From positions 1 through 28,873 of the forward strand of contig JBBCAV010000273.1 of assembly GCA_051382305.1 (NCBI GenBank): a stretch of 28,873 nt of DNA. The letters run 5' to 3'. The DNA comes from Bdellovibrionota bacterium FG-2 (GTDB lineage: Bacteria > Bdellovibrionota > UBA1018). This document shows, one piece after another, positions 2,618-23,572 of this stretch (position 1 is the first letter of the stretch; each line of letters begins with the position of its first letter). The position numbers and the translations under genes are program-made. The notes under the pieces are model-generated. The model saw only the letters and a program-made list of their open reading frames with translations, was not told the DNA's origin and ran no database searches.

Positions 2618-2676
2618 AGGCGATTATTGTCCCAAACTTGACCTTTTTTGGGAAGACCCTAATATGGAATATAGAC

Positions 2677-3588
2677 ATGGACTTTTTTCCCATTTACGCA
2701 GGGAGCCTTCAGCCCAATACGACCGTGCCTTTTGACGCTTTTGTTCAAGTAGCGATCAAGTTTCTGCCCTATATTGAGAAAGCAGAAAAAGTAGACGCTG
2801 AAAGACTTAGGAAACTCGTCACCAACACCATGCCCAGGCTTTTTGTGCCTATTTTGGACGAACCGGCCTATTTTGAATATCTAAAAGCGTGTCTAGAAGA
2901 GCCAAAGCCCGCCAAGAACCCCATCGAGCATCTGTTCTACTCGCTTTGTACAGTGACTGAGAATCTCCCACGCAGAGTTGAAAACGAAGGCACTTTTCAA
3001 CAAACGGCTGCCATCATTTATCTAATTTCTGACTTTTTATCGGCCCGCCCCAGTGCCATCAAATCTGAGTTCTTCGGGACAATGGAATCTTCTAATGTCT
3101 TTGAGCACTCCGCTAAAGTCGCGATCCTTTCGATGGCCCTTGCCCCTCGGCTCGGCCTGCAGGACAGCCAAGAACTCCGTGACATGGGCGTTGCGGCCCT
3201 TCTTCACGATTTAGGGAAACTCTCACTGAACCTGCCGTGGGGAGCATCACTTGAGGACCTTCCTCGCGGCCTTGCCCAAGCCTACTCAAGCCATCCAGCC
3301 CTTAGCGTCGAAATCGTGTCCGATAAACGGTATGTTAATGTGCGCATCAGACGACTCATCGCAGATCACGAAGAAATGGGACAAGGCGAGGGGTTCCCCG
3401 GGAAAAAGAACATTGTGGAGCTTTCGCTTAGTTCGCAAATTCTGAACCTATGTAACGACTTCGAGCGATACACGACCCAACAAAAAACATCGCTCATCGG
3501 CGCCTTCAAGACGTACACCCGCGACAAACGCGGGTTATTCGACTCGCTTCAGTTGCTCAGACTTGGTGAAATGCTCTCAGGGAAATAG
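2677..3588 (+). CDS. HD-GYP/HD-domain protein, partly degenerate
   Basis: FEHSAKVA...LLHDLGK...SHP...DHEE...GEGFPG; the ATG at 2677 is preferred over the TTG at 2638. Confidence 0.8.
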   Translation: MDFFPIYAGSLQPNTTVPFDAFVQVAIKFLPYIEKAEKVDAERLRKLVTNTMPRLFVPILDEPAYFEYLKACLEEPKPAKNPIEHLFYSLCTVTENLPRRVENEGTFQQTAAIIYLISDFLSARPSAIKSEFFGTMESSNVFEHSAKVAILSMALAPRLGLQDSQELRDMGVAALLHDLGKLSLNLPWGASLEDLPRGLAQAYSSHPALSVEIVSDKRYVNVRIRRLIADHEEMGQGEGFPGKKNIVELSLSSQILNLCNDFERYTTQQKTSLIGAFKTYTRDKRGLFDSLQLLRLGEMLSGK

Positions 3589-3603
3589 CTGCAGCGCCCG
3601 ACC

Positions 3604-3924
3604 TTATTCGGTCCCATTCGTTCCGTGGCAACTCATGCAGTAAGTCGTATCGTAACCTTTAGCCGCAAACACGCGATTCAATTCATCCGCATCAATCGAC
3701 GAAGTCGGACCCCGATGGATGTTTTGAAAAACGTTATGACAAACCAGGCAATCTTTTCGCCCGTATCCACCCTTATGCTCTTGAGCATCGACAATGCGAA
3801 TACCACCGGAGGAAGCCTGCACATCCCCGTAGTTCTCCCGATCGCGCACATCCGAACCACAGCCCGCCGCGAGGCCACTCGCAACTATCATCACCAACAG
3901 AAGCTTTACCTTAAATGTCATCAT
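3604..3924 (-). CDS. Small di-heme c-type cytochrome lipoprotein
   Basis: Lipobox LAAG-C after a hydrophobic leader; two CxxCH motifs (CLVCH, CMSCH); ATG at 3924 overlaps the upstream stop (ATGA). Confidence 0.85.
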   Translation of the reverse strand: MMTFKVKLLLVMIVASGLAAGCGSDVRDRENYGDVQASSGGIRIVDAQEHKGGYGRKDCLVCHNVFQNIHRGPTSSIDADELNRVFAAKGYDTTYCMSCHGTNGTE

Positions 3925-4514
3925 TTTTTCCCCGAATGGCAATCAGTACAAAAAACCCTGGAATGACAGGTATCGCACTTTTGCGGCTGCGCACGCGCAA
4001 CGACCGAGTGATAAAATCTAAAGTTACGACTGTGATTTTTGAACTCCACATCGTTGCGTCGCTGGTGGCATTTCACGCACTGGGAAGTCGTGTGACAATT
4101 CATGCAAGCATCCCCATCAATGCGCGCGTTGGTTGCATGAGATTGCGCCCACCCTATATTTAGGTGATTGCGGGGCTTGATATCCTGCAAGTTGCCCTCA
4201 CTTCGGTGGCAATTGTAACACTCCTGAGGGGCCGCTTTGTTCTTAGCCTCTGCACTTTGATGGCACTCGTGACAAATCGCCTTAAGAGGCCGGTTTAGAG
4301 CAGAGTTTGCCATTCCCGACAATAACACAGCCGTTTTGGCCTTGAGATCGACTTTGAAATTATGACAGTGATCGCAACTAAGGCCTCTCGCCTTAATAAC
4401 TCGATCAAGATGAGCGTCATGATCAAAACGCGCCGTCACATCGACGCGCTCCTCCGCGCGGCTTGAAACACTTCCAACCATCATGCAAATTATAGGAACC
4501 CAAAACGACTTCAT
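3921..4514 (-). CDS. Hepta-heme c-type cytochrome (c7/c3-like N-domain), exported
   Basis: Signal peptide ending SRA; seven CxxCH motifs (CDHCH, CHECH, CYNCH, CMNCH, CVKCH, CDTCH, CTDCH); ATG at 4514 overlaps the porin stop (ATGA); RBS GGAAGGA. Confidence 0.92.
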   Translation of the reverse strand: MKSFWVPIICMMVGSVSSRAEERVDVTARFDHDAHLDRVIKARGLSCDHCHNFKVDLKAKTAVLLSGMANSALNRPLKAICHECHQSAEAKNKAAPQECYNCHRSEGNLQDIKPRNHLNIGWAQSHATNARIDGDACMNCHTTSQCVKCHQRRNDVEFKNHSRNFRFYHSVVARAQPQKCDTCHSRVFCTDCHSGKK

Positions 4515-5770
4515 ATTTCCTTCCAAAGTAAGTAGGTCAATTTGGCAATGCCGCGGGCATCATAACGAAGGCTGTTGTTACTATTAAATTCGCCTCCCAC
4601 ATTGAACTTAAGACGATCGGTAAATGAATATCCAATCCATCCCTCTACATTGAGCGCTAACCTCTGAGCCGAGGTGACCTTCTCGTAGTAACTTACATCC
4701 ACTCCCTGCGTGAACTCCAACTTGTCCGTTAGATCTTCCCGAAACTTGATCCGATCCCCATAGGCTTTTCCGCCATAACTAAAAAAATAGTACGCCGTAT
4801 TTGTCGCCGTCAAAAAGCGTTTATGAAAACGACTTCCCCACTCTGCCCGATAGCCATAAGTCCGAAGCGCCGCTTGCAAAAGATAATCATCATAAGCAAA
4901 CGCGACGCTGGAAGAAAATACGGAATTAAACTGATAATCCAGCTGCAATGAAGTTTCGTACAAACGTCCTAGGGAAAAAATTGAAAACAACGGATCCTGT
5001 ACATCGTCATCGGGCTTTGACTCATAAGTCATGGCCCGCCATCTCACACTCATCCGGGTCGTCGGATAAAGATCAAAGCCCCCTTCGCCGATATTCAAAA
5101 CAAACGTCTGGGCATTCACTTCGGAGTTAAGTAGAAACTCGGGACTCCAAAAACTTCCAAAGGGTTTTTGAACCGCGCCCCCGACAAGATGCTGCCCCGG
5201 AAGATTAGGCATGTTTCGATACTGATACTTTGCCTTTAAAAATAACGGATACTGACTTGAACTGCGATACTGAATATTATTGGAAACAAACTGCGTGGTC
5301 GAATCCAGACTTGCATTCAAAAGTTTGCGCTCAACCCCAGCCATCGTCCCGAGTTTAATCCGCTTATCAAAGAGCGCCAAATCCGCACCCAAGGAATCCG
5401 TTGTCGTTGTACGTGTTGAGGTGTGCACATTAAAAGAGCGCCCCGCGCGAAAAGTGAGCACATCTTGGACCGGACTATAAGCGAGATCGAAAATATAGAG
5501 ATCAAATTGGGATTTGGATTTGGCCGGATCCCCAAAGACCGAAAAATTGGTATTGAATTCAAAATCATGCGGATTTGAGACATACGAACTTGAGAGAAAC
5601 TCGTACATGGGTGCTTCGGCCTTAAAATCTGTTCCATTGCGTCCAAAAAATAAGCTTTCAGATTCTACTCGCAAAAGGCCGGCAAAACCTCTATGAGCTC
5701 CCCCCAGGAAAGCGGCAATCACGGCAACACAAACGATGAACTGTCGAGCACGACAAAGTGTGAGAATCAT
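4511..5770 (-). CDS. Putative outer-membrane beta-barrel (porin-like) protein
   Basis: 419 aa; signal peptide; no internal TM helices; aromatic-rich alternating beta-strand patterns (SLQLDYQF, GWIGYSF, AKLTYLLW); directly coupled to cytochrome genes. Confidence 0.65.
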   Translation of the reverse strand: MILTLCRARQFIVCVAVIAAFLGGAHRGFAGLLRVESESLFFGRNGTDFKAEAPMYEFLSSSYVSNPHDFEFNTNFSVFGDPAKSKSQFDLYIFDLAYSPVQDVLTFRAGRSFNVHTSTRTTTTDSLGADLALFDKRIKLGTMAGVERKLLNASLDSTTQFVSNNIQYRSSSQYPLFLKAKYQYRNMPNLPGQHLVGGAVQKPFGSFWSPEFLLNSEVNAQTFVLNIGEGGFDLYPTTRMSVRWRAMTYESKPDDDVQDPLFSIFSLGRLYETSLQLDYQFNSVFSSSVAFAYDDYLLQAALRTYGYRAEWGSRFHKRFLTATNTAYYFFSYGGKAYGDRIKFREDLTDKLEFTQGVDVSYYEKVTSAQRLALNVEGWIGYSFTDRLKFNVGGEFNSNNSLRYDARGIAKLTYLLWKEI

Positions 5771-5804
5771 GAGATTCCACCCTTTTAGCTCGCTCGGTAT
5801 TCAA

Positions 5805-5829
5805 CTTCAAGCAATCATTTTGATCTCAT
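5805..5829. repeat. Left copy of the 25-bp target-site duplication of the IS1634 element
   Basis: CTTCAAGCAATCATTTTGATCTCAT, identical to 7976-8000. Confidence 0.95.
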
Positions 5830-7975
5830 CTTGGGTTTCCCAGCTGCATAGCAGCGTAATTTAGAAAATTCACAATAACTATTGAATGGCTTTGGGTTTT
5901 TCGGAAAGTTCATTTTTTTTGTGTTTTTATAAGACGGCCTAACTTCAGCAATAAGTGTGCTATTTGTATCTTATTTTTTGCTTGTTTTTTAAAACAAATG
6001 TTTTATATTACGGCCTAATGAAAGACTGCGAACGAAAAATACACCTCAAAGACTGCTCCGTCACAAAGAACGGCGTGCGGCACCGTTACTTCTCCCTGGC
6101 GGAGTCTCGCAAAGTCGACGGCAAAAACCAAAAGACGACCATCAGGTACCTGGGCAACATCACTGAGGCTCAAGAGGAGTCCTATCGATGCGCATTGAAG
6201 AGCATCAATAGTGGCAAGGGCTCAATCGTTGATCTCGAAGACCTAAGGTATGAGCGCAGCTATGAGTTTCTTAATGTCGCGGTGATGCACTGCCTTTGGC
6301 AGCAGCTCGGATTTTCTAAAATATTTTCACGCTGCGACGGCTCACATAAAGAAGTCTCCACGGAGCAGGTTGCGGAGATCCTAGTCACAGCCAAACTGCT
6401 TAAGCCCTCGAGCAATGTCAGAACCGTTGAGTGGTGCAATGAGTCCACGCTACTGCCTAAGCTCATGGGGAACAGCCCAGGCAAATACAATCGAATGAAA
6501 ATCTTTCACGAGCTCTCTACATTGGCAGCTTGTAGACCCAACATGGAGGAGCACTTTCTGGGGCTTGCCCAGAAGTATAACAGCGACGGTTTTGATATTT
6601 TCTTTATCGATGGCACGACCACCTATTTTGAGGGCACAGAATGCGAGCTGGCTCGTCCAGGCAAAGACAAGACCACAGGGTTTCAGACGCACATCGTCCT
6701 GATTCTTTTAGTCACCGACCGCCAGGGATACCCCTGCGCCTGGGAGGTTTATGAGGGCAATGACAAGGAAGTAAAAAGACTTAAGGAGATTGCCCAGAGA
6801 ATTTGCACCCAATACAAGATCACCAACATCACGTTTTGCTTTGATCGCGGCTTCGCGAGCATGAAGAATTTCGAGATGATCGAGGATTTGCAGTCAAAGT
6901 TTATCTCCGGCCTGGACCGCAATCAAATCAGCCAAGTCTGTGATGTAGCTCTTTTTCAAAACACAACACGGCAAAAGATTTTAGATAACGCGGCGACTTT
7001 GCATCAATTCGCAACACCGACCAAGGGAGAAGCCTCAAAGCGTCGGTGGCCAATTGATGGCTTTTATACTGCCGACGGAGAGAGGTATTATCGCGACCTA
7101 GGCGTGAAGAGTTTACTTGGGGGCCATTACCGTTATGTGGCTGGGTTTAGTACAGACATTTATCAAGCCGAACAGGCTCATCGCGAGCAGGCCAGGCTGG
7201 ATGCATTCTTAAAGATCTGCGAACTCAATGAAGAACTTGCGGCTGCAAAAAAGGACCGCGACCTAGACGTGGCCGCCCGCAAAGTGAGTGACATCCTAGA
7301 AGCACATAAGATGCAGGGGATCATCCAATTTACCCTCACCCCCACTAGCGTGAAAGTTGGCAATGACACCATCCAGTCCGGGGTCATCAAGTACAGTGTC
7401 GATAGCGAGGCTTGGCATCAGGCACAGCTGCTCGACGGCTTGTTTGTTTACGTAACCGACCACTCAGAGGTGGATGCCGTCGGCATGTTTAAACTCACTG
7501 CCTATGACATCACTCGGCATTACAAAGACAAGTTTGTGATCGAGCAAGATTTTAGAGGATTAAAAAATATCATCGACCTACGCCCCCTCTATGTTCGGCT
7601 ACCCGAGCATGTGCGCGCGTTGGTTTCGATCTCGATGATGGCGCAGTTCATAAACGTTTTCATTACGCGGCGCCTGGCCACTATCGGCATGTCGCTGAAT
7701 GAATTTTACAATCTGCTTGATCAGTCCAAGTCGGTAGCGGTCCTAAGCACACCGAAGCGGACACTGAACAAGCTGGTTAAAACGCAGCCGAGGCTAATCA
7801 CTGCACTGGAGGCACTCGACCTGAAAGATTCCGTCTTTTCCGATCGTACAATGGCTACCCTCGCTTAATCCGGCACGCTCCCTCGTGCTCACTCAGGATT
7901 GAGTTTACGGCCTAACTTTTTTTATGTGATGTGAATGATTACGCCAGGTTTGTGCGCTGAGTTGAGAAACATGGG
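5830..7975 (+). mobile_element. IS1634-family insertion sequence (~2146 bp)
   Basis: Single DDE transposase; imperfect terminal IRs CTTGGGTTTCCCAGCT vs CCCATGTTTCTCAACT; flanked by a long perfect direct repeat. Confidence 0.9.
6018..7868 (+). CDS. IS1634-family transposase
   Basis: N-terminal RYFSLAESRKVDGK..KTTIRYLG; FIDGTTTYFEG; CFDRGF; YKDKFVIEQDFRGLK..LRPLYVRLPEHVRA. ATG at 6018 is preferred over GTG at 5955. Confidence 0.9.
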   Translation: MKDCERKIHLKDCSVTKNGVRHRYFSLAESRKVDGKNQKTTIRYLGNITEAQEESYRCALKSINSGKGSIVDLEDLRYERSYEFLNVAVMHCLWQQLGFSKIFSRCDGSHKEVSTEQVAEILVTAKLLKPSSNVRTVEWCNESTLLPKLMGNSPGKYNRMKIFHELSTLAACRPNMEEHFLGLAQKYNSDGFDIFFIDGTTTYFEGTECELARPGKDKTTGFQTHIVLILLVTDRQGYPCAWEVYEGNDKEVKRLKEIAQRICTQYKITNITFCFDRGFASMKNFEMIEDLQSKFISGLDRNQISQVCDVALFQNTTRQKILDNAATLHQFATPTKGEASKRRWPIDGFYTADGERYYRDLGVKSLLGGHYRYVAGFSTDIYQAEQAHREQARLDAFLKICELNEELAAAKKDRDLDVAARKVSDILEAHKMQGIIQFTLTPTSVKVGNDTIQSGVIKYSVDSEAWHQAQLLDGLFVYVTDHSEVDAVGMFKLTAYDITRHYKDKFVIEQDFRGLKNIIDLRPLYVRLPEHVRALVSISMMAQFINVFITRRLATIGMSLNEFYNLLDQSKSVAVLSTPKRTLNKLVKTQPRLITALEALDLKDSVFSDRTMATLA

Positions 7976-8000
7976 CTTCAAGCAATCATTTTGATCTCAT
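7976..8000. repeat. Right copy of the 25-bp target-site duplication (contains the ftsH 3' end and stop)
   Basis: Identical to 5805-5829. Confidence 0.95.
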
Positions 8001-9834
8001 CGTCTCGATGTTTCAGCCAAAGATTCCGAATCTGCTCCTCATTTAGCGTCTCATGGACAATGAGTTCCTTTACCCCATCGTTTACAAACCCTTCAAATCG
8101 GTGGACTATCTGCGTCGCCCTTGAAAACGCCCGCTCGACAATCCCCCTTACCTCGCGATCAATTCCCTCTGCAGTTTCTTCGCTGTATTCGAAGGCCCTC
8201 ATGCTGGGGAGTGGATTCAAGAATGGTGAAACCTCGCGATCATAAGTAATCATTCCAAGCGTATCACTCATCCCAAAACGGGTCACCATGGCTCGAGCCA
8301 GATCGGTGGCCTTATCTAGGTCATCAGCCGCCCCGGTGGACATCTCTCCCAAGAAGTGTAACTCCGAGGATCGTCCCCCCATCAAGACTGCGATTTTGTG
8401 CTCCAATTCTTTCCGGCAGGCTAAATAGCGATCCTCGCTCGGCCGGCGAATCGTATATCCCAAGGCTCCCATGCCACGTGGAATCACACTGACCTTGTGC
8501 ACGGTCTCTCCTTCACCAAACGCCAAGGCCACCAACACATGCCCCATTTCATGAAACGCGACTCTGCGCTTTTCTTCGGGGTTCAGAAGGCGACTCTTGC
8601 GCTCAAGGCCTGCCACAATCCTTTCGATTGCCTCGGTAAAGTCCGCGTTCGTTACCGCATCGGCTTTACGGCGTGTCGCGGTGAGCGCTGCTTCGTTCAC
8701 GAGATTAGCTAAATCGGCTCCAGAAAAGCCTGTGGTGAGCGAAGCAATTTCGTCGGCATTAATCTCCGCCGCAAGATGAATTTTCTGCATGTGTACGTTC
8801 AGAATCTCCACACGTCCCTTGCGATCTGGCTTATCAATCAAAACCTGTCGGTCGAACCGACCTGAGCGCAATAATGCAGGATCGAGCACTTCGGGTCGAT
8901 TTGTTGCGGCTAGCAGGACGATTCCCTTACTCGAGTCAAAGCCATCAAGCTCGGCCAAAAGTTGATTGAGGGTTTGCTCCTTCTCGTCGTTTGCGCCGCC
9001 ACTAATAGCGCTCACCCCTCTCATTTTCCCCAAAGCATCCAACTCATCGATAAACAGGATGCAAGGCGCTTGGCTACGCGCCTGCTCAAAGAGGTCTCGC
9101 ACGCGTGCGGCCCCAAGACCCACGAACAACTCCACAAACTCAGAACCATTGATCAGGAAAAACGGGACACCGGCCTCGCCTGCCACGGCCCGAGCAAGCA
9201 ATGTTTTCCCCGTGCCGGGTGGACCCACAAGGAGCAGCCCTTTGGGCATTCTGCCCCCAAGGCGATTATAATGGGCGGGATCTTTTAGGAAACTTACAAC
9301 TTCTTGAAGTTCTGCCTTGGCTTCGCCCACCCCCGCCACATCTTTGAATCGTGTTTCGATGTCTTTTTCTGCATAGACGCGCACTTTCGATTTTCCCAGG
9401 GGGAACATCTGACCCCGAACGCCCCCGCCACCTGCTTTCGCCATGAAGAAACTCCAGATCGTCACCATGACCAAAATCGGGAGTACCCAAGACGCGATGG
9501 CCCGAATGAATGTGCTCTCGCGAACGGCCTCGAACTTCACTTTTGCGCGGGTCAGGCGATCTATGAGCGTCGGATCCTCTGTTCGCAACGTCCAGAACTT
9601 CTTGACCGGCACAGTTGCAGGAGGTTTAGCCGGTTCGGCCACCAGAAGCGTGCCTTCAATTCGTTCTTGCCCGACGACGAGCGACTCTATTTTCTGTTGA
9701 TCGAGTTTTTCAACAAACTGGCTATACGGAATTGCTTCAGATTTACCCTGTGTCATGAAAAGATCTTGGACAAGGAGAAAAACCCAGAAGATGAGGAGCA
9801 GATAGAGGAGACTGAAATTCTTTTTTTTCTGCAC
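7978..9834 (-). CDS. ftsH: ATP-dependent zinc metalloprotease FtsH
   Basis: Two N-terminal TM segments, [39 protein letters not shown] zinc motif. Confidence 0.97.
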
Positions 9835-9875: not shown

Positions 9876-10937
9876 CTAGTACTGATCCTGAGGGATCGCC
9901 ATCACACGACGCAAAACCCCAGAAAGTTCATTGCGCCACATCATCCAATTATGTAACGCTGGGACCTTACGAAAGGTCATTTGAATGCCGATGCGCACTG
10001 ATTCTTGCGCCACTTTTTCATTGAACTCATTCATCGGCAAAGTCTCGTACGAGCCGACTGAATTGAAAGCACGAAAGAGGGTCACCGTATTCATGCCAGC
10101 AAGTAAATTAACCATGCGTCCTTCGTCCCACCAAAAAGAACCTGACTGAGACACGACATTTCCAAAAACTTCAGGATACTTTACCGCCGTAAAAAAACTG
10201 ATCAGCCCCCCCAAAGAAGGACCCACAATCACCCGTTGATTTCTGCCTACCGAAGCCCCGAGTTTTTGCTCCACTTCGGGCACTAACGAAGTCGCAACAA
10301 AACGAACATAGTCTTCGTTTAACGCATACTCCCGATTTCGATCTTTGGGAGGAATCAATATCGCTACAATTGCAGGCATATCCGGCTGATTACTCAGGTT
10401 TGCCACGAGGTTCGCAATTGCGCCTTTTTCGAGATAATCACCGCCATCCTGGAAATAAGCGTAAAATCTAGGCTTGATCATCGTGCGTTTGACAGCAGGC
10501 AAAAGAACCGTAAGGTTTCTTTTGGTGCCCTCCCAGTCTTTGACCACCACCGTTTTCTGCAAGTGAGGAATCACCCCTAATTGCCGATCTAGGAGGGGAT
10601 CTTCTTGAAAATCAGGAAACGCCCAAACAGAATTATACCCCCCAAGCCCGTCTTTTTGTTGTTGTGGATTATTGGGATCCGTTTCCCAGTGTCCATCGAC
10701 CACGAACTTGTAACGAATAAAGGGCAACCAGGGCTCAGCAAACTTGAACTCATATTTCCCAGGCTCGACTTCTGGCATCGGATACCGCGTGGCATCCCAT
10801 TGACCCAGATCGCTTGCGAAAAAAACTTTTTGGCCAGGGACACCTGAAAAGTAGGAGAGCGTCTGTTCGTTCGCACGTGCGACACTTGTGAGTGCCGTTA
10901 GACCTAGGATAAGAGCGAGTCCCAGAAATTTCGCCAT
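9876..10937 (-). CDS. Secreted alpha/beta-hydrolase (Fes/enterochelin-esterase-like) with N-terminal CBM48/AMPK-type glycogen-binding domain
   Basis: Signal peptide MAKFLGL...ARA; YKFVVDGHWETDPNNP...DGLGGYNS (CBM48); QDGGDY, GPSLGG nucleophile elbow, SQSGSFW, HNW. ATG at 10937 has RBS GGGGGGA. Confidence 0.85.
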   Translation of the reverse strand: MAKFLGLALILGLTALTSVARANEQTLSYFSGVPGQKVFFASDLGQWDATRYPMPEVEPGKYEFKFAEPWLPFIRYKFVVDGHWETDPNNPQQQKDGLGGYNSVWAFPDFQEDPLLDRQLGVIPHLQKTVVVKDWEGTKRNLTVLLPAVKRTMIKPRFYAYFQDGGDYLEKGAIANLVANLSNQPDMPAIVAILIPPKDRNREYALNEDYVRFVATSLVPEVEQKLGASVGRNQRVIVGPSLGGLISFFTAVKYPEVFGNVVSQSGSFWWDEGRMVNLLAGMNTVTLFRAFNSVGSYETLPMNEFNEKVAQESVRIGIQMTFRKVPALHNWMMWRNELSGVLRRVMAIPQDQY

Positions 10938-11205
10938 ATTCCCCCCCGGAAACCTCACAAAGCTACCAAGCAAGCGGGTGGGTGACAACTTAAAAACCGA
11001 GCTCGGCGTTCTCCTCAAGCGCGTAATGAATGTAACTTCTCTTTGAGATGTGAACCTACATCTCTATAACCCTTGGGGGATTAGCATAACCCATAACGCC
11101 ACATGTTAAGATATTTAACACCTTGTTTCATGATTAGTTTCGGCTCCGATTTTCGATCGCGGCGGCTGGTATTCGGGCAGAATATCGAATAATTACGACC
11201 CCATT

Positions 11206-11222
11206 CAGGTCCAAGACTTGCT
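11206..11222 (+). promoter_or_regulatory. Possible sigma-54 (-24/-12) promoter for the coiled-coil gene
   Basis: CAGGTCCAAGACTTGCT has GG-N10-GC with a good TTGCT -12 box, about 40 nt before RBS AAGGAG/ATG 11264; the -24 box is imperfect. Confidence 0.35.
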
Positions 11223-11263
11223 CACTTGCCAAGCTAAACCTAAATCGATAAGGAGTTAACTCA

Positions 11264-11872
11264 ATGCCAATTCAGAAAACACTGCCTCACAAGTCTAACG
11301 ATCTCCCCGCCACCCGAGGAATGCTCAAACTCGTTAATAGCGAATTAAAGGCGGACAATCGCGCGCTTCGATCAGAAATGAAAGCAGGGTTTTCCGGTGT
11401 TAGCGCTGAATTCAAAAAAGTCACGGCCAGATTCAAAGATGTCGATGGCGGATTTAATGGAGTCAAAGCTCAGTTCAAAGACGTCGATGCACAGTTTAGT
11501 AAGGTGAACGCGCGATTCAATGAAGTTGACGCGCGATTCAATGAAGTTGACGCGCGATTCAATGCCATAGATGCCAGATTTTGTGAAGTCGACGCGCGAT
11601 TTAATGCCGTAGATGCCAGATTTGCCCGAGTAGATGCTCGTTTCGATGAAGTCGATGCTCGATTTAACAAAGTCGACGCCAAACTCGAAACCGTTCTCTC
11701 TGAAGTCTCACGAATCGGAAATTTGGTGGAAGAACAAAACGCTAACAACCGAATCGTCTTGGAAGGCCTCACGGGCCTTTGGCAGCGGCAAGAGAGGTTT
11801 GAATCTCGTCTTACCGAAGAAGTTGAAAAAACGGTCGCTCATGCGCTGAGCCAAAAGAAGGGTCGCATATGA
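11264..11872 (+). CDS. Coiled-coil heptad-repeat protein (VDARFxx)n, unknown function
   Basis: About 15 consecutive heptads with V/F core positions; strong RBS AAGGAG. Confidence 0.85.
   Translation: MPIQKTLPHKSNDLPATRGMLKLVNSELKADNRALRSEMKAGFSGVSAEFKKVTARFKDVDGGFNGVKAQFKDVDAQFSKVNARFNEVDARFNEVDARFNAIDARFCEVDARFNAVDARFARVDARFDEVDARFNKVDAKLETVLSEVSRIGNLVEEQNANNRIVLEGLTGLWQRQERFESRLTEEVEKTVAHALSQKKGRI
11508..11564 (+). repeat. 21-bp coding tandem repeat, ~2.7 perfect copies within a longer degenerate array (~11378-11692)
   Basis: ACGCGCGATTCAATGAAGTTG at 11508 and 11529, partial copy at 11550. Confidence 0.9.
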
Positions 11873-12312
11873 ATAAGTTCACAGTTCTATTCATCGGAGT
11901 TCTATTGAGCCTCGTCGCCTCCGCAGATGAAGCCTCTCATCAATGCCAGGTGATTAAAACAACCCAGTTTTATAATGCGCAATCCATGAAGTTTGAGGGA
12001 TTCACTCGCGCTCAAAGCCTATGGTTTCCCGTGACAAGTAAACCTCACGAAGATTCATACACGATCCCTTTAAGTAATGAGCTCGGATCAAGTGATGAAA
12101 CGGTGAGCGTTTGGACCGGGACCGTATTAAGTCAACCCGACGGAGATCTGATCCAAGCTAACGCCACTTTTGTAATTCAAGGCCAAACCGAGAATGCGGC
12201 CCTGGCAATGTCTGTGAAATCCCCCTTCACCTTTACAACACGCGACTTAGATTATGAGTCCAACGGAAAGTTCTGCATGGTGGCGGTTGATCTGAAGTGC
12301 GTTTCGAAATAG
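11869..12312 (+). CDS. Secreted hypothetical protein
   Basis: Signal peptide ending ASA-DE; ATGA overlap with the upstream gene; Cys near both ends; beta-rich. Confidence 0.75.
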   Translation: MNKFTVLFIGVLLSLVASADEASHQCQVIKTTQFYNAQSMKFEGFTRAQSLWFPVTSKPHEDSYTIPLSNELGSSDETVSVWTGTVLSQPDGDLIQANATFVIQGQTENAALAMSVKSPFTFTTRDLDYESNGKFCMVAVDLKCVSK

Positions 12313-15769: not shown

Positions 15770-16558
15770 TCATTTCACGGCCTCGATGTTTGCCGACACA
15801 ACGTAATCGGTGATCTCGGTGCCTGGCGCCCATTTTTGGATGAAGGATTTGCTCAACTCTTTGGGTGATATGCGCACGTCTTTAAAGCCCGTAGCGTGAA
15901 GCATTTGCTCCAGTTCCGAAACAAGCACCGCTCCCGCGATACAACCTGTATAGAGATCGACGTTATTTTTGATGCTCTCTGGAATGGGAGCATTCGCCAC
16001 GACATCCGAAATCGCTAATCGGCCCCCGACCCTCAAGACTCGATAGAGCTCCGAGAAAACCCTAGGCTTATCCGGCGAAAGATTGATCACACAGTTGGAA
16101 ATCACCACATCAACCGAATGATCGGCGACGGGCAGATTCTCAATCTCGCCTAAGCGAAACTCCACGTTCGTATAGCTCGCTTTTTCTGCATTTGAACGGG
16201 CCTTGGAGATCATCTCCGGCGTCATGTCTACGCCAATGACTTGGCCCGTTTCACCCACCTGTTTTGCGGCCAGAAAACAATCAAAACCACCGCCACTGCC
16301 TAGATCCAGCACGGTTTCTCCAGTTTTGAGTGCGGCGATTGCTTGAGGATTGCCGCAACCCAACCCCATGTTTGCGCCCTCGGGGACAGCATTAACTTCG
16401 CTGGTCGTATACCCCATCGCCTGAGAACTCGCCTCAGAAGAGGGTGTCTCACTAGGGGAGCAGCAACTTGGGGCACATCCACAGGAGCTATTTTCTGCGA
16501 TCTTGCGATATTGATCGCGAACCTCTTGCCGAATTTCGTCGTGTTTTTTTTCTTTCAT
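15770..16558 (-). CDS. arsM: Arsenite S-adenosylmethionine methyltransferase
   Basis: GLGCGNP, LDLGSGGGFD, GVDMTPEM, SNCVINL, GCIAGA; N-terminal Cys cluster; ATG at 16558 with RBS AAGGAG. Confidence 0.95.
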   Translation of the reverse strand: MKEKKHDEIRQEVRDQYRKIAENSSCGCAPSCCSPSETPSSEASSQAMGYTTSEVNAVPEGANMGLGCGNPQAIAALKTGETVLDLGSGGGFDCFLAAKQVGETGQVIGVDMTPEMISKARSNAEKASYTNVEFRLGEIENLPVADHSVDVVISNCVINLSPDKPRVFSELYRVLRVGGRLAISDVVANAPIPESIKNNVDLYTGCIAGAVLVSELEQMLHATGFKDVRISPKELSKSFIQKWAPGTEITDYVVSANIEAVK

Positions 16559-16565
16559 AGCTTTT

Positions 16566-18293
16566 TCAGATCTCCTTCCAAGGAACAATGATAATGTTTT
16601 TAGCCAATCCATTCTGCACTCTTTGAATCTGCGCCACTTCGTGATGCGCACGACTCGCTAAAACTGGATCTTGAGTTTGATTGCCCACAAGACACTGATT
16701 GATCACCCAGGCGTAGGGCTCAATTTCCGCGCGTCTAAGATCCTTCTGAAGCGCTTCGGCCTCACTCACCAGAGTTGTCTCAGGGAGGGTAACAATAAGT
16801 AGTTTGGTGAATTTCGGATCCTTAATCCGCATCATGGGCGTAGTGACGTGCAACGTAGCTCCATCATGACCCATTTTTTTCATGACTTCCTTGTGGTACG
16901 AGCCGGCGGCATCCAAGAGAAGCAACATATGGCCCGTAGGGGCAGTATCCATGACTACAAAGTGGTCGCGCGCCTCATTTACGATTTTAGAAAAAGCGCG
17001 AAACACCGCAACCTCCTCGGTACAAGGAGAGCGAAGGTCCTCATTGAGGAGCGCCAGCCCTTCTTTGTCGAGACCTTTGCCAGCCGTCTCGATGACTTGT
17101 TGGGTATAATTCTGGGTTTCGATCTTGGGGTCGATCCTTGTGACCCGCAGACTCGGAAGTTTTTCTTGCCCTGCCAAGTTCGCCTCCAAATGTGCCGCGG
17201 GGTCCGTGGTTGTTAAGTGAACCGGATACCCCCTCGAGGCAAGATGAGTGGCGATCGCAACAGCGATAGTCGTTTTACCAACGCCGCCCTTCCCCATCAC
17301 CATGACGAGACATCGTCCGTCTGCGACTATTCCGTCAACCAACTTTTCAATGGTTAAGGTTCCAGCGGGGATCGCAACAGGGGTGGCGGCTTCCGGGAGT
17401 ACGACGGATACGTCAAAGAAACTCCTCAAAGACTGAATCCCCACCAGGTTGTGAGGCTTAAGCTCAAAGAGCGCGCGCTCCTTAGAAACTAGTCCCTGAG
17501 GAATGCCCTCAAGAGCTTTATTCACGCGTGATTCAAACGCGAGTGCGATTTTGTCCGAGCGGTTCTGCGCTCTAAATACGGCGTTAATGGCTAATTGCTG
17601 ATTAAGGAGTCCGATACCCTCGAGTTCGTGAGAGGTTCGCTCCGCCTCGGCAATCGCTATGGGATCAGGACGTGTGACAAGCACAACGGTCGTTTCGGTG
17701 GGATTTCGAAGTGTTTGGACCGCTTGTTCATAGCGCTCGCGCTGATTATTGAGAGCAGAGCTGGGTCCAAGACAAGAGGCGCCGTGAGTCGAGGTCGTCA
17801 AAAAATCCGTCCATGCAGAGGGGAGACTCAAAAGTCTGAGGGTGTGCCCCGTGGGTGCGGTGTCAAAAATGATATGATCAAAATTTAAGGTCATCTCACT
17901 ATTGAGCAGAAGGCTTGTGAACTCATCGAACGCCGCGACCTCAACAGTACAGGCACCTGAGAGCTGTTCTTCCATATTGCGAATGGAGTCCGGTGGAAGA
18001 ACTTGTCGATAAGGCCCAATGGATCGCTCACGATACGCTTTAGCAGCAGCCTCGGGGTCGATATTCAGTGCAAACAGATTTTTAACTTCAGGAATCGCTA
18101 TCGGATTTGAAGCCAATCGAACGCCCAACACTTCATCGAGATTGGATGCAGGGTCCGTACTGACTAGCAGAACTTTTTTGCCATGATCGGCAAGCCGAAC
18201 GGCCGTCGCGCATGCAATTGATGTTTTTCCGACTCCACCTTTACCAGTGAAAAAGAGGTAATGAGTCGTTTTCTCGATAAAAGTGTCACCCAC
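16566..18293 (-). CDS. arsA: Arsenical pump-driving ATPase
   Basis: Two GKGGVGKT and two DTAPTGH motifs; metalloid Cys in GACT, ASCL and SPCT. True start is probably GTG 18293, not 18563. Confidence 0.96.
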   Translation of the reverse strand: MGDTFIEKTTHYLFFTGKGGVGKTSIACATAVRLADHGKKVLLVSTDPASNLDEVLGVRLASNPIAIPEVKNLFALNIDPEAAAKAYRERSIGPYRQVLPPDSIRNMEEQLSGACTVEVAAFDEFTSLLLNSEMTLNFDHIIFDTAPTGHTLRLLSLPSAWTDFLTTSTHGASCLGPSSALNNQRERYEQAVQTLRNPTETTVVLVTRPDPIAIAEAERTSHELEGIGLLNQQLAINAVFRAQNRSDKIALAFESRVNKALEGIPQGLVSKERALFELKPHNLVGIQSLRSFFDVSVVLPEAATPVAIPAGTLTIEKLVDGIVADGRCLVMVMGKGGVGKTTIAVAIATHLASRGYPVHLTTTDPAAHLEANLAGQEKLPSLRVTRIDPKIETQNYTQQVIETAGKGLDKEGLALLNEDLRSPCTEEVAVFRAFSKIVNEARDHFVVMDTAPTGHMLLLLDAAGSYHKEVMKKMGHDGATLHVTTPMMRIKDPKFTKLLIVTLPETTLVSEAEALQKDLRRAEIEPYAWVINQCLVGNQTQDPVLASRAHHEVAQIQRVQNGLAKNIIIVPWKEI

Positions 18294-18840
18294 AACACTT
18301 CCCGCCCTTATCCGTATCAGCCTCTTCAAGAAACTTCTCAGCCAGCGCGAGTACCGCGCGAGCAGGACTGTTCTTGACGGCATTGGCCAAATCGACACTC
18401 TGACGAATATCTTCTTTGGAAACTCCCAACTTTCGGGCCTCGCTATAGTGATATTTAAAACACGGTTCGCAATTAGAAGCGATCGCCGCCCCGATTGCCA
18501 CGAGTTCACGCACAGAATTTGTGAAGATGCTGGCTTGAAACTCGACCCCCGCAATGCCTGCAAGTGCTTCTCGTGAAAGATATTTTCCAGTAGACGCTAT
18601 CTTGCCGTCCACCAAAATAAGCGGAAGGCACCTATTTCCATCTTGCGTAAGCGTGTTTTTTACCAACACCGTGTTCACGAATTTTTCTGGGTTTTGTGAA
18701 AGATTGTAGCGCCCAATCTCAACACCTTGGCGCTTGAGCCACTCAAGATCACCTGCAAAGCGAACAAGCTCCGGGTCCACTTCCGAACCACAGACTCCCG
18801 TTGAACAACACATCGGTGGGTCAAAAACTTCTAACATCAT
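18286..18840 (-). CDS. arsD: ArsD arsenite metallochaperone fused to a C-terminal AhpD/CMD-like domain
   Basis: DPPMCCSTGVCG ArsD motif in the first ~100 aa, then RELVAIGAAIASNCEPCFKYH..EARKLGVSKEDI (CMD/AhpD core) and terminal KCCG. Confidence 0.9.
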   Translation of the reverse strand: MMLEVFDPPMCCSTGVCGSEVDPELVRFAGDLEWLKRQGVEIGRYNLSQNPEKFVNTVLVKNTLTQDGNRCLPLILVDGKIASTGKYLSREALAGIAGVEFQASIFTNSVRELVAIGAAIASNCEPCFKYHYSEARKLGVSKEDIRQSVDLANAVKNSPARAVLALAEKFLEEADTDKGGKCCG

Positions 18841-18869
18841 GGTGTACCTCTACTCCGTATTTTTTGCGA

Positions 18870-19154
18870 TCAGCAACAGCTTGAACCACTACAACAGCCA
18901 CCTTTTGACTTCTGCTCGTTACCCTTACTGATAATCTCGGCCAATTCACTCACCGATGGCACTTTACCGTTAAAAAGTACTTTCTCATCAATCACGAGCG
19001 CTGGGGTACTCATAATCCCGTATTTTGCAATCTCGGCATAATCCTCAATTTTGGTAACGGATGCATCGATCCCCAACTGCTTGAGGGCCTCCTGAGTATT
19101 TACCGTAAGACGTTTGCAATTTGCGCATCCTGGACCTAGTATTTTTATGTTCAT
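18870..19154 (-). CDS. Small thioredoxin/glutaredoxin-like protein (MTH895-like) with Cys-rich tail
   Basis: IKILGPGCANC...YGIMSTPALVID...GKVP; tail GGCCSGSSCC. Confidence 0.9.
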   Translation of the reverse strand: MNIKILGPGCANCKRLTVNTQEALKQLGIDASVTKIEDYAEIAKYGIMSTPALVIDEKVLFNGKVPSVSELAEIISKGNEQKSKGGCCSGSSCC

Positions 19155-19181
19155 TTGATTTCTCCTTTTGTTAGTTAATGA

Positions 19182-20222
19182 TTAAAGCAGCCAGTTAAAC
19201 AGATAACCCACGAGCAGAATGCCGACTCCTACAATTGCTATAAAAACTGCAATGAGCGTAGGTTTTAAGACCTTACGAAGAATCACCATCTCTGGAAGCG
19301 AGAGCGCGATCACAGACATCATGAAAGCCAGTACGGTGCCCAGTGCGGCTCCTTTTTCCAAGAGCGCCTGAACGATCGGAATAATTCCAGCCGCGTTCGA
19401 ATACATGGGAATCCCAATGATCACAGCTAGCGGTACAGACCACCATGCCTGCTTACCCATGATGGAAGCCATAAAGTCTTGCGGCACATAACCGTGGATG
19501 CCCGCACCGATCGCAATCCCTCCGATCACATAGGGCCAGACCTTGCCAACTATCTCGCGAACCGCATCTTTACCGGCCTGGATTCGCGCTTCCCAAGTTA
19601 GAGAGGGCATAGCACCTTCGCCGCCTTGCCCCTCCGTCTTAATCGCATACACCCAAGACTCGACGTGCCCTTCCAGCTTCAGTCTACCAATAACCCAACC
19701 TGATCCGATTGCGATCATGAGCCCCGTACTCAAATAGAGTGCCGCCACCTTCCACCCAAAGAGCCCATAAAGGAGCACCAGCGCGACTTCGTTAACCATT
19801 GGAGCCGACACAAGAAACGAAAACGTGACTCCCAGCGGAATCCCCGCCGTCACAAAGCCAATAAACAAGGGCACGGCGGAACAAGAGCAAAATGGAGTTA
19901 CGATACCAAGCAACGCCGCAAGAATATTACCAAGATACTCACTCCGGCCTGCCAGAATTTTACGAGTCTTTTCGGGTGTAAAGAATGACCTAATCACTCC
20001 GACCGCAAAGACAACTATCATAAGCAAAAGAAGAACCTTAGGAGTATCAAAGAGAAAAAATTCGACAGATCCCGCCAAGCCACTTGTTTTTTTTAGACCC
20101 AAGACCGAGTAGGTCATCCACGCTGCAAACGGAGCAAGTGCGCGATACAAGGCAAACCATGCGAGGAGAACCACACCGCCAATAACAATCTTCTTAACTT
20201 TTGAGTTCACAGCTATCTCCAA
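19182..20222 (-). CDS. arsP: ArsP/DUF318-family permease
   Basis: Multi-TM; TPFCSCSAVP, SFLVSAPMVNE, GIPMYSNAAG, SLPEM motifs. Confidence 0.88.
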   Translation of the reverse strand: MEIAVNSKVKKIVIGGVVLLAWFALYRALAPFAAWMTYSVLGLKKTSGLAGSVEFFLFDTPKVLLLLMIVVFAVGVIRSFFTPEKTRKILAGRSEYLGNILAALLGIVTPFCSCSAVPLFIGFVTAGIPLGVTFSFLVSAPMVNEVALVLLYGLFGWKVAALYLSTGLMIAIGSGWVIGRLKLEGHVESWVYAIKTEGQGGEGAMPSLTWEARIQAGKDAVREIVGKVWPYVIGGIAIGAGIHGYVPQDFMASIMGKQAWWSVPLAVIIGIPMYSNAAGIIPIVQALLEKGAALGTVLAFMMSVIALSLPEMVILRKVLKPTLIAVFIAIVGVGILLVGYLFNWLL

Positions 20223-20903
20223 TCAAAGCACATGAAAAATAAACACGAGAGTGTAGTAAACGCCTACACAGACAAAAATACCCCCGGTCAGTCGCCGAAC
20301 CCAATACTCAATGCGTGAAAGCTTCTTGAGGACATCCCCAACCACTTGAGTACCTTTTCCGAGAAGCACAGCAAAAACCACGACGGGGGCAGCAGTGCCA
20401 ACTCCATAGAGTGAAGGCAGAAGCACACTTGACTTTGAAGTAAGCGCTAACGGGATCAAACTTCCAAAAAATAGCGCCGCAGACACCGGACAAAACGAAA
20501 GCGCAAAGAGGCTTCCAAGGAAAAGAGCCCCAAGGCTTCCTGAATTCGCTAGCTTCTTCTTGAATCGTTCACTTGTGAGCACTTCAAGATTAGGGAACTC
20601 TAGCAGCTCGAGTAAAAAAAACCCAGTTAAAACCAAAACTGGCCCCAAAAGCTGGTTCATGTATTTCTGTAATACATAAGAGACCTGAGGCATCGAAAGC
20701 ATTCCACCGACCAATACGAAACCCAACACAACGTAGGTCAAAGTTCGTCTCAGAGCGTAAAGAATACCTAAAACGAGAACAGCGCGAGATTGCGAGATCT
20801 GTTTGCTAAGATAAGAAACAGCCACAAGATTAGTCGTAAGCGGACAAGGACTCAGCGAAGTCAGAATACCAAGCCACAACGCTGTTCCAGCAAGAATCAC
20901 CAT
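20223..20903 (-). CDS. ArsG-like / CcdA-DsbD-type membrane protein
   Basis: LGILTSLSPCPLTTN and ALSFCPVSAALFF paired TM cysteines, ~6 TM; ATG at 20903 with RBS AGGGGG. Confidence 0.8.
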   Translation of the reverse strand: MVILAGTALWLGILTSLSPCPLTTNLVAVSYLSKQISQSRAVLVLGILYALRRTLTYVVLGFVLVGGMLSMPQVSYVLQKYMNQLLGPVLVLTGFFLLELLEFPNLEVLTSERFKKKLANSGSLGALFLGSLFALSFCPVSAALFFGSLIPLALTSKSSVLLPSLYGVGTAAPVVVFAVLLGKGTQVVGDVLKKLSRIEYWVRRLTGGIFVCVGVYYTLVFIFHVL

Positions 20904-20910
20904 ACCCCCT

Positions 20911-21390
20911 TCACGAATCCGAAGCCACGAGACGTCCGCCAAAAGCGGTGACTTCATTTTGAATATACTTTTGAAACTGATCAGGGTTATCGATCCCATC
21001 CCAAACCCGATCTAAGTTTTTCCACTTTTTTTGAATACCGTCTTCCATCTCCACCAAAACAACGGACTTCGTCGAAAGCCGATAGTCGGAGTTAAAATGC
21101 GCATTCATCGGTTCTTCGACATTTATAACCCGCCACACAAGGTTTCCGGCCTCCAGGGCTTTAGCAAACCGCGACTGAATCGCCTGCATTGAGTAAGCTT
21201 CGATCGCCCTGCATGTCATGCAACGAGCAGTCCCGTGGAAGTAATAGGCAATTACTTTGTGTCCCTGTTCTTTTTGGATTGCTACGTTGACGGTTGCGTT
21301 TCTGGCTCGATACTCTCTCACTCCGGCGTAGATCGCACTCACGGCCACAAACAGAAACAATCCAAGCCCAAAAATGCGTTTCATTTTCAT
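20911..21390 (-). CDS. ArsF-like membrane-anchored thioredoxin-fold protein
   Basis: N-terminal TM/signal; YYFHGTARCMTCRAIE; KWKNLDRVWD. Confidence 0.75.
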   Translation of the reverse strand: MKMKRIFGLGLFLFVAVSAIYAGVREYRARNATVNVAIQKEQGHKVIAYYFHGTARCMTCRAIEAYSMQAIQSRFAKALEAGNLVWRVINVEEPMNAHFNSDYRLSTKSVVLVEMEDGIQKKWKNLDRVWDGIDNPDQFQKYIQNEVTAFGGRLVASDS

Positions 21391-21409
21391 AAAACGATTC
21401 TCTCCTCAG

Positions 21410-22123
21410 CTACTCTTGCCAGTCTTCAAATAAGAAACTCAACCGAGTTTTAAGTTCATCGCGTACTCGACGGAACCCCTCCATCGCCTCGACATCCGCA
21501 CTACCGTGAGGGGCGGGATCAGGCAGCCCCCAATGAAGCCGGATCGCCTTACCCAAAAATACCGGACACACCTCTTCCGCACAAAGCGTGATCACTGCGT
21601 CGACACTCGTGGCATCGATCGAGTCCACCCCCTTGGAGGTGTGATGAGAAACATCAATTCCGATTTCCATTAGCGCTTCGATTGATAACGGATTAACTCT
21701 CGAAAGTGACGACCCCGCCGATGAGACTGTTACCGAGGCTGGCGCAAAAGATCGAGCTATTCCTTCTGCCATTTGACTCCGGGCAGAGTTGGCCACACAC
21801 AAAAAGAGAATGTGCTCAGGTCGGAGGGCTCTTAGAATGGCAGCTTCCACCATCCACTCGGGAGGCACCCCTTTTCCATCTGAATAGATTCGGCAAGCCA
21901 TGGACGCTTCGGTGTCTGGATGCATGCGTCCCTCTATATCTGCACCATTAATCCGAATCGTAGGCGAGCCTAAAGAAATCTCTTTTTTGGCATGCTCTTC
22001 ACTTGTGATTCGAATCTCTTGAACCTGAGCACCAGGCGCTAGTCGTTGGACTATAGTTTGAACTAAGGAGATCGTAGGTTCTAAGTTAGGACAGCCCTCA
22101 AAATAAAGAATTTCAAGCTTCAT
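21410..22123 (-). CDS. arsC: Thioredoxin-fold domain fused to thioredoxin-dependent arsenate reductase ArsC (LMW-PTP fold)
   Basis: C-half has CVANSARS P-loop, LCAEEVCP resolving Cys pair and LPDP; N-half has LYFEGCPN...GSPTIRING...ACRIY. ATG at 22123 with RBS AGGAGG. Confidence 0.88.
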
Positions 22124-23150: not shown

Positions 23151-23481
23151 AACGCTTGCCCTTAAGCCACTTTTCAAGCTGAACTTGAGCCTCTTTGATG
23201 GGCGCGGAACTAAAAAGTGCCTCAATCGTCTTAAGGACTGCCTTTTGAAATAGAGAGGGTTTACGATTTACTCGATAATAAACCCACACAGCTTCCCGTC
23301 GATCTTCCAAAAGCCCCGCCCGCTGCAAATACCGAAGATGCCTGGAGGCCTTCGACTGTGAAATCCGCATCCCCTCCACAAAATCGCAAACACAAAGCTC
23401 GCCACGCCTCAGCAGCAAGGCTACCATTTTGAGTCGGGTTTCATCTGAAAGCGCCTTAAAAACTTGAACTTCGCTCCTCAT
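23143..23481 (-). CDS. arsR: ArsR/SmtB transcriptional repressor
   Basis: [17 protein letters not shown] metalloid site, [20 protein letters not shown]. Confidence 0.94.
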
Positions 23482-23541: not shown

Positions 23542-23572
23542 AACCTCTCGCCTGGAGAGGTTAAGGCGAGAG
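23542..23572. terminator. Hairpin between the ATPase stop and the ars promoter (possible weak terminator)
   Basis: AACCTCTC-gcctg-GAGAGGTT (23542-23562), or alternatively CTCTCGCCT/AGGCGAGAG (23545-23572); no clear U-tract. Confidence 0.3.

Follow-up and report, generated by a model that had tools for sequence, protein, structure and literature searches.

A candidate porin-cytochrome electron conduit with a predicted, unannotated outer-membrane barrel in a Bdellovibrionota genome

To our knowledge, porin-cytochrome conduits are the only established route by which electrons cross the outer membrane of Gram-negative bacteria without diffusing carriers, and MtrCAB is the only one of them for which we know of a structure. 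Three elements define the conduits of Geobacter (PMC6148476): a multihaem cytochrome in the periplasm, a barrel integral to the outer membrane and a lipoprotein with a redox cofactor. Geobacter-type porin-cytochrome (Pcc) clusters span 18–22 barrel strands, 5–14 periplasmic haems and 1–15 outer haems, with homologues called by BLAST at E < 0.01 (PMC4245776). Here we analyse three adjacent genes in a contig of 28,873 nucleotides from Bdellovibrionota bacterium FG-2 (JBBCAV010000273.1, assembly GCA_051382305.1), the whole of which we call the window. The genes encode a 419-aa predicted β-barrel, a heptahaem cytochrome and a dihaem lipoprotein. We put at roughly 60% the probability that this trio is a Geobacter-Pcc-like electron conduit across the outer membrane, drawn from undescribed protein families. 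For that conduit we infer a physical complex of the three proteins, the threading of a cytochrome through the barrel, the topology of the lipoprotein and the function of the whole.

A sequence-only reading of the window had first described the trio, and ORF calls together with inspection of the sequence bear out the three genes with their coordinates, haem counts, export signals and ATGA stop/start overlaps. The overlaps lie at 4511–4514 between the barrel and heptahaem genes and at 3921–3924 between the heptahaem and dihaem genes (Table 1). All three proteins have hydrophobic, signal-like N-termini, that of the 419-aa protein ending in GFA and leading into a conserved GLLRVES; signal peptides and the lipobox were assigned by eye from the sequence. 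No CXXCH motif occurs outside the heptahaem and dihaem genes among the window ORFs of at least 40 aa. Because the haem motifs and ligand histidines are conserved across homologues, as set out below, the trio is far beyond what chance would produce.

The arrangement is that of the Geobacter clusters. With 22 predicted strands, seven periplasmic haems and two outer haems, the trio lies inside the ranges given in PMC4245776, and all three elements named in PMC6148476 are present. The modelled barrel agrees with the integral outer-membrane barrel of ~18–22 strands found in Pcc clusters, the heptahaem protein is a Sec-exported, non-lipoprotein cytochrome within the range of 5–14 haems, the dihaem protein is, to judge from its sequence, an outer-membrane lipoprotein with a redox cofactor, and the genes are clustered and co-inherited. 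Since its sizes fall within the published Pcc range, the trio has a Pcc-type layout and is not unusually compact. It differs in its host, Bdellovibrionota rather than the Desulfuromonadia of Geobacter Pcc, and in sequence, being matched only by generic c7/c3 domains and compared with OmbB, OmaB and OmcB by description alone. OmbB is porin-like, OmaB is a periplasmic cytochrome with eight haems and OmcB is an outer cytochrome with 12, whereas the outer cytochrome of the window has ~85 aa and two haems. If OmbB is porin-like, the name order ombB-omaB-omcB is also the order of barrel, periplasmic cytochrome and lipoprotein cytochrome in the window (PMC4589669, abstract; PMC4245776; PMC6148476), although in the introduction of PMC6148476 OmbB and OmaB have their roles exchanged.

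The barrel is the best supported of the three parts by modelling. The AlphaFold2 model of the 419-aa protein, built from an alignment of 11 sequences, has a signal helix followed by 22 antiparallel strands (residues 31–418), with a pLDDT of 78 and a pTM of 0.64. Its turns are 2–9 residues long, the sole exception being an 18-residue loop at 251–268, and a plug domain is absent. Searched against the PDB with Foldseek, the model has at least 421 matches at E ≤ 1e-3, and the ~45 matches listed are outer-membrane barrels at a probability of 1.0. FimD/PapC ushers, OprD/Occ porins and 22-strand TonB-dependent receptors are among these, and the best query TM-score of the matches listed, 0.62–0.63, is to the barrels of the 22-strand receptors. 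By this model, and as the sequence-only reading had proposed, the 419-aa protein forms a barrel, one of large size in the outer membrane. A barrel this wide and without a plug would need an occupant. By our own geometric estimate, 22 strands give a backbone diameter of ~40 Å, compared with ~47 Å for the 26 strands of an MtrB-like barrel, and this would be enough for a slim haem chain of the c7 type.

Curated libraries do not recognize this barrel: Pfam and NCBIfam scans of the 419-aa protein gave no match. A word-indexed search of 5.8 billion proteins found 11 barrel relatives including the window protein, at identities from 82% down to 34%, the sole named one being a Bdellovibrionota metagenome-assembled genome (MAG). 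With a profile search of 1.84 billion cluster representatives, the family grows to 140 clusters at E ≤ 1e-3, of which 95 pass at 1e-10 and 45 at 1e-30, and nearly all of the representatives are 400–450 aa long. Among 105 full-length relatives, no Pfam family was found in more than one, and a further homologue search with the profile of these 105 sequences (A3) returned 10 proteins, all found before, with no new names or taxa. Cluster look-ups for 20 distant relatives gave the annotation “hypothetical protein” and the taxa “bacterium” or “Deltaproteobacteria bacterium”. Against PDB sequences, barrel profiles A1 and A3 found nothing significant, the best value being E 0.02 to a designed barrel, and the MtrB chain was not among the matches listed. 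By these searches, the barrel family is undescribed in Pfam and NCBIfam. The nearest look-alike clusters of the barrel and the cytochrome in the ESM Atlas, which we take as a lead only, are unnamed or c7-type and are commonest in Myxococcota.

The heptahaem protein passes the gathering thresholds of the cytochrome c7/c3 superfamily and the dihaem protein falls below them. Pfam matches are to Cytochrome_C7 (PF14522; 4.3e-10, 39.7 bits with a cutoff of 24.8, residues 29–104) and to Cytochrom_c3_2 (PF14537; 30.9 bits with a cutoff of 25), and the protein has a trihaem, c7-like domain at its N-terminus and then two dihaem repeats, at 117–150 and 161–193. Including itself, the protein has 33 homologues at 36–82% identity, and those source names that bear a taxon are all Bdellovibrionota or Bdellovibrio. 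All seven CXXCH motifs are invariant across this set, as are H35, H82, H117, H126, H161 and H169, and H32 is nearly so. Seven candidate distal histidines for seven haems would imply a bis-His cytochrome for electron transfer that leaves no catalytic site open, and on this pattern of conservation all of its haems are probably bis-His. By eye, a canonical lipobox is absent from the signals of this protein in the window and in all six of the related loci described below. PDB sequence searches with cytochrome queries gave weak, generic multihaem matches, to reaction-centre cytochromes and 3ouq at ~2e-4, which we do not use as evidence.

The third protein is small and highly constrained. In all six lipoprotein sequences, Cys22 as the lipid anchor, the Gly that follows it, both CXXCH motifs and two histidines, H50 and H70, are invariant, which gives two conserved extra histidines for two haems. 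The invariant Cys, CXXCH pair and histidines therefore indicate a genuine dihaem protein of ~85 mature residues. Its family matches in Pfam, NCBIfam and a PDB profile search are all below threshold; the match of its profile to MtrC in the PDB, at E 0.04, is likewise not used as evidence. The sequence-only reading had staked its case in part on there being no close orthologue of a characterised complex, and none emerged, the Pfam and NCBIfam matches of the trio being generic c7/c3 ones and those to PDB sequences not significant.

A genome scan gave 13 pattern matches, of which six are related loci (L001–L006). They come from assemblies titled Oligoflexia (L001), Bacteriovoracaceae (three), Bdellovibrionales and, in one case, a “Deltaproteobacteria” MAG. 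L001 is the closest and is syntenic with the window across an aldehyde dehydrogenase, a PRK-family kinase, an HD-domain protein, the trio, ftsH, an esterase and dnaX, which fits the earlier view of the genome as Bdellovibrionota-like. Barrel and heptahaem genes are adjacent in all six, and the dihaem lipoprotein gene follows in five, being absent in L003. The ATGA overlap of barrel stop and heptahaem start is kept in 7/7 loci including the window, and that of the heptahaem and dihaem genes in 4/7; the proposal that the trio is conserved together is thus upheld. Across 21 pairs of loci, the identities of the barrel and those of the heptahaem protein are correlated (r = 0.96), a co-divergence that is expected for a co-inherited unit because the sequences are related. 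Relative to L001, dN/dS is 0.05, 0.07 and 0.18 for the three genes, ratios that are approximate with dS near saturation, and by this measure the trio is under purifying selection.

In some distant relatives, the barrel and a multihaem cytochrome are one protein. P0100 (723 aa) has 12 N-terminal CXXCH motifs and barrel homology at residues 360–712 (E 9e-24), and P0113 (575 aa) has four N-terminal motifs and barrel homology at E 1e-16; P0162 has three motifs at its C-terminus that could be gene-calling read-through. The cluster of P0100 has five members, four of 723–725 aa and one of 393 aa, and because these come from different contigs the fusion is not an assembly accident. The fused cytochromes share with the heptahaem protein a dihaem unit of ~35 aa, consisting of H, 2–5 residues, W/F/Y, 3 residues, H and two CXXCH. 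There are six copies of it in P0100, two in P0113 and two in the window protein, and at least two in 33/33 heptahaem homologues, and the 10 other multihaem sequences examined (nine related-locus cytochromes and P0162) all lack it.

P0100 and P0113 are in effect multihaem Cyc2-like cytochrome-porins, all annotated as hypothetical. Like Cyc2 and GM18_3465 of Geobacter sp. M18, they are single chains with an N-terminal c-type cytochrome and then a barrel, a likeness of architecture only. The fusions have 4–12 haems, whereas Cyc2 carries one. The haems of GM18_3465 sit in loops (PMC4245776). The window itself does not have a Cyc2-type fusion, its cytochrome and barrel being encoded by separate genes.

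Coupling and fusion also bear on a different use for the barrel, as a solute channel or anchor. A soluble substrate, such as an oxyanion of a metal or metalloid, would then enter through it and be acted on by the cytochromes within the periplasm, with no transmembrane haem chain. Barrels associated with cytochromes can be tied to the reduction of oxyanions and not to mineral respiration, and the proposed analogue is Geobacter ExtHIJKL, in which the reduction of selenite and tellurite depends on the porin ExtI (PMC6148476, PMC5877670). The two haems of the lipoprotein are also few for a terminal surface reductase, and the window has an arsenic-resistance island ~10 kb from the trio. However, ars genes are adjacent in 0/6 related loci, 22 strands with neither a plug nor a long constriction loop would leave an unusually wide open pore, and both the multihaem-barrel fusions and the invariant translational coupling point to a complex of fixed stoichiometry. 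We consider such a channel quite unlikely.

In the conduit that we favour, the wide, plug-less 22-strand barrel would sheathe the heptahaem cytochrome. The cytochrome would be the obligate partner of the barrel, sitting in or through its lumen as an insulated haem wire, and the dihaem lipoprotein, anchored in the outer membrane, would lengthen the chain of haems at one opening of the barrel, most likely on the outer face.

How electrons would reach this conduit is suggested by its relatives. In 4/6 of them (L003–L006), a Sec-type cytochrome of 365–373 aa with nine CXXCH and two CX3-4CH motifs is encoded directly upstream of the barrel. This 11-haem protein matches Paired_CXXCH_1 (up to 8e-43), the GSU2203 decahaem family and, at 7e-27 and below the cutoff, the DmsE-family decahaem model TIGR03508, and it matches PDB chain 6r2q_A at 6.8e-8 by phmmer. 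We take that chain to be MtrA of the Shewanella baltica MtrCAB complex, although the PDB table prints another molecule name for it. Its length, 333 aa, is that quoted for MtrA in PMC4245776. Neither the window nor L001 or L002 has such a DmsE/MtrA-like gene at this locus. As direct partner of the barrel we favour the heptahaem protein over the DmsE-like one because it is coupled to the barrel in 7/7 loci, because it is present in every locus whereas the DmsE-like protein is optional, and because of the fusions.

Other cytochrome genes surround the related loci. L005 has a divergent module of NrfD, 4Fe-4S and tetrahaem proteins, a monohaem protein and a downstream 6-haem lipoprotein (3826–6462 and 9967–11980), and L006 has a NapC/NirT-like 6-haem cytochrome, a 680-aa 10-haem protein and a thioredoxin-like protein (2734–5661). 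The cytochrome-maturation genes ResB and CcsA are found at 3/6 loci (L002, L004 and L006). Judged by sequence, the related-locus genes together resemble an entire pathway that leads from quinol to the outer membrane, and the window only its outer-membrane core. Across the wider family, electrons would arrive from the DmsE/MtrA-like periplasmic 11-haem cytochrome and from inner-membrane modules resembling quinol dehydrogenases, and the window locus would hold just the three-gene core. The trio is probably a core rather than a whole system, and a DmsE/MtrA-like gene could lie elsewhere in the genome of the window organism.

The window does not reveal which way electrons flow, and the same parts could carry them inward to the periplasm, from Fe(II) outside the cell, from minerals or from partner or prey cells, in the manner of MtoAB/PioAB and Cyc2. 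The fused cytochrome-barrel relatives recall the architecture of Cyc2. Porin-cytochrome modules are also reversible in principle, and conduits with inward flow are described in Rhodopseudomonas (PMC6148476). On the other hand, the NrfD/4Fe-4S/tetrahaem module of L005 and the NapC/NirT-like cytochrome of L006 look like quinol-oxidising outward feeders, even if they could run either way, and a marker of Fe(II) oxidation was identified in no locus. We regard an inward-working device as unlikely.

Comparison with the remaining conduits refines the placement. The four-gene form in 4/6 relatives, with a large periplasmic multihaem cytochrome, a barrel and two small cytochromes, echoes extA-extB-extC-extD, a likeness of layout in which extA encodes a 12-haem periplasmic cytochrome and extB the barrel. 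Some genomes have contiguous extBCD with extA elsewhere, like the three-gene form of the window (PMC6148476). ExtB has 18 predicted strands compared with 22 in the window barrel, and both ExtC (5 haems) and ExtD (12 haems) are lipoproteins, whereas the first small cytochrome of the window is Sec-type and the second is the only lipoprotein. With MtrCAB, MtoAB and PioAB the common principle is a barrel-sheathed cytochrome, and the upstream cytochrome of L003–L006 is distantly of the DmsE/MtrA type. Barrels of the MtrB/PioB type, however, have ~700 aa and 26–28 strands, not 419 aa and 22, and the cytochromes of MtrCAB have 10 and 10 haems, not 7 and 2. A DmsE/MtrA-type decahaem protein with Paired_CXXCH is likewise missing from the window, where Pfam finds that signature in neither cytochrome, and a DmsE-like protein is seen only in L003–L006. 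Identity with an Mtr system was considered and rejected: the barrel has the wrong size, similarity is not detectable and the window cytochromes are without Paired_CXXCH.

These comparisons temper the sequence-only reading, which had presented the trio as a minimal conduit, with sizes and haem counts unlike those of MtrAB, in a lineage not known for extracellular electron transfer. The mismatch holds against MtrAB and fails against Geobacter-type Pcc, whose ranges include the trio (PMC4245776). That the conduit is minimal is doubtful, given the ~370-aa DmsE/MtrA-like cytochrome directly upstream in 4/6 relatives. The statement about the lineage is dated, since MtrA/MtrB homologues were reported in 2026 in magnetotactic Bdellovibrionota MAGs (PMC13200544). 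The trio is therefore less exceptional than had been held: its size is in the Pcc range, it is probably not minimal and its lineage has predicted Mtr homologues. In the open-access papers and preprints on multihaem cytochromes of Bdellovibrionota and Oligoflexia, or on heptaheme-porin pairs, we found no description of this cluster.

Several observations weigh against a conduit. The C-terminus of the barrel, WKEI, does not end in an aromatic residue, as outer-membrane proteins typically do. The AlphaFold2 model of the heptahaem protein is poor in its C-terminal half (pLDDT ~50), its confident part being the c7-like N-domain only, and a Foldseek search of the PDB with this model gave no match at E ≤ 0.001. 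The dihaem repeat pattern was defined after the sequences had been inspected. In an hhalign comparison, the heptahaem profile matched the fused domain of P0100 at 97% (E 1.7e-10, 139 columns), a value only modestly higher than the 81–95% reached by unrelated multihaem cytochromes as controls; because of these control scores we rely on the count of repeat units and not on hhalign. The relatives are all MAGs. Six haems are deemed too few to span the membrane and the 10 of MtrA sufficient (PMC4245776), so that with nine haems in total, the 7–9 available for the crossing are borderline. The DmsE/MtrA-like gene of 4/6 relatives is missing at the window locus, and the local module may therefore be incomplete; in the four-gene form, it could be the DmsE/MtrA-like protein, and not the heptahaem one, that threads the barrel.

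To these must be added the state of the locus. An IS1634-family element, whose transposase matches NCBIfam transpos_IS1634 at 2.8e-65, has inserted in antisense orientation 34 nt ahead of the barrel start and may have separated the trio from the transcription that it once received; a promoter scan found no promoter-like site between the element and the barrel start. The flanking 26-nt direct repeats are 100% identical, and the first copy duplicates the last ftsH codons and the stop. Long target duplications are typical of IS1634. Before the insertion, the ftsH stop was ~35 nt from the barrel start; in L001, which has no such element, ftsH ends 95 nt before it. Across 3400–6100, a scan for promoters and terminators gave counts equal to those expected from shuffled sequence.

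In the window, the trio could thus be a silenced or decaying remnant, deprived of ftsH-driven transcription by the IS1634 element and without a DmsE/MtrA-like feeder. The position and orientation of the element and the lack of a promoter-like match behind it would fit this, as would a second insertion sequence that splits a P-type ATPase in the window and implies ongoing activity of such elements. Yet none of the three ORFs is disrupted, the haem motifs, signals and lipobox are all still in place, and dN/dS is just 0.05–0.18. The perfect 26-nt repeat suggests a recent insertion by which the coding sequence is not yet affected. Moreover, L001 and L002 also have no upstream cytochrome and are free of any insertion sequence, which argues that the three-gene form is a stable state. 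A remnant is, in our judgement, improbable.

Table 1. The trio, the IS1634 insertion and other features of the window
Feature	Position	Strand	Remarks
Barrel gene	4511..5770	-	419 aa; signal-like N-terminus; 22 predicted strands at residues 31-418
Heptahaem cytochrome gene	3921..4514	-	197 aa from ATG; Sec-type export; 7 CXXCH
Dihaem lipoprotein gene	3604..3924	-	106 aa; lipobox LAAGC; 2 CXXCH; mature ~85 aa
IS1634-family element	5831..7975	+	2145 bp; transposase ORF 5955-7868; between ftsH and barrel gene
Direct repeat copy 1 (target-site duplication)	5805..5830	.	34 nt upstream of barrel start codon
Direct repeat copy 2	7976..8001	.	true 3' end of ftsH
ftsH	7978..9834	-	Pfam Peptidase_M41, AAA and FtsH_ext; same neighbour in L001
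HD_5/HDIG-domain gene	2638-3588		HD-GYP-like; convergent to trio, 15 nt between stops
202-aa protein gene	11264-11872		weak coiled-coil Pfam matches
Arsenic-resistance island	15770-23225	-	about 10 kb from trio
P-type cation ATPase, seemingly split	23561-27702	-	parts in the next three rows
ATPase N-part	27702-25843	-	E1-E2_ATPase, Hydrolase
rve-integrase ORF	25815-24391	-	second mobile element
ATPase C-part	24328-23561	-	Cation_ATPase_C
ArsP-like ORF	27707-28195		second in window; partial

Some further features of the window are given in Table 1. The HD-GYP-like gene that converges on the trio is a neighbour kept only in L001. The arsenic-resistance island comprises genes for a SAM methyltransferase (ArsM-like), ArsA, ArsD, an ArsP permease, a DsbD_2 membrane protein, an ArsC of the low-molecular-weight (LMW) phosphatase type and an Acr3/SBF transporter. 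The 202-aa protein consists for the most part of a repeated, heptad-like motif of the type VDARFNE/K.

Should the barrel be no more than an ordinary porin next to cytochromes of the periplasm, the finding would be a routine one; even so, an unannotated barrel family with multihaem fusions merits follow-up. If the trio is a conduit, a system of nine haems and ~700 residues would be an attractive small target for structures and for the heterologous wiring of cells to electrodes, and the natural fusions would be an internal “Rosetta stone” for the assignment of partners. It would also define a barrel family unseen by Pfam and NCBIfam, and surveys of extracellular electron transfer would then miss such conduits. 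Predicted electron exchange with minerals and between species would extend further into the Bdellovibrionota, which are mostly thought of as predators. A bolder proposal, which we make tentatively and consider possible but doubtful, is that the 419-aa protein is the founding member of a so far unrecognised family of barrels that have 22 strands and sheathe a cytochrome. This family, which counts 140 or more clusters at 50% identity and has no Pfam model, would have a dedicated dihaem-repeat partner, either the product of a translationally coupled neighbouring gene or part of the same chain, as in a multihaem, Cyc2-like cytochrome-porin, and would form a conduit lineage independent of Mtr and of Geobacter Pcc/Ext. 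Were this true, non-Geobacter and possibly predatory bacteria among the Bdellovibrionota would gain a nine-haem wire to minerals, partners or prey.

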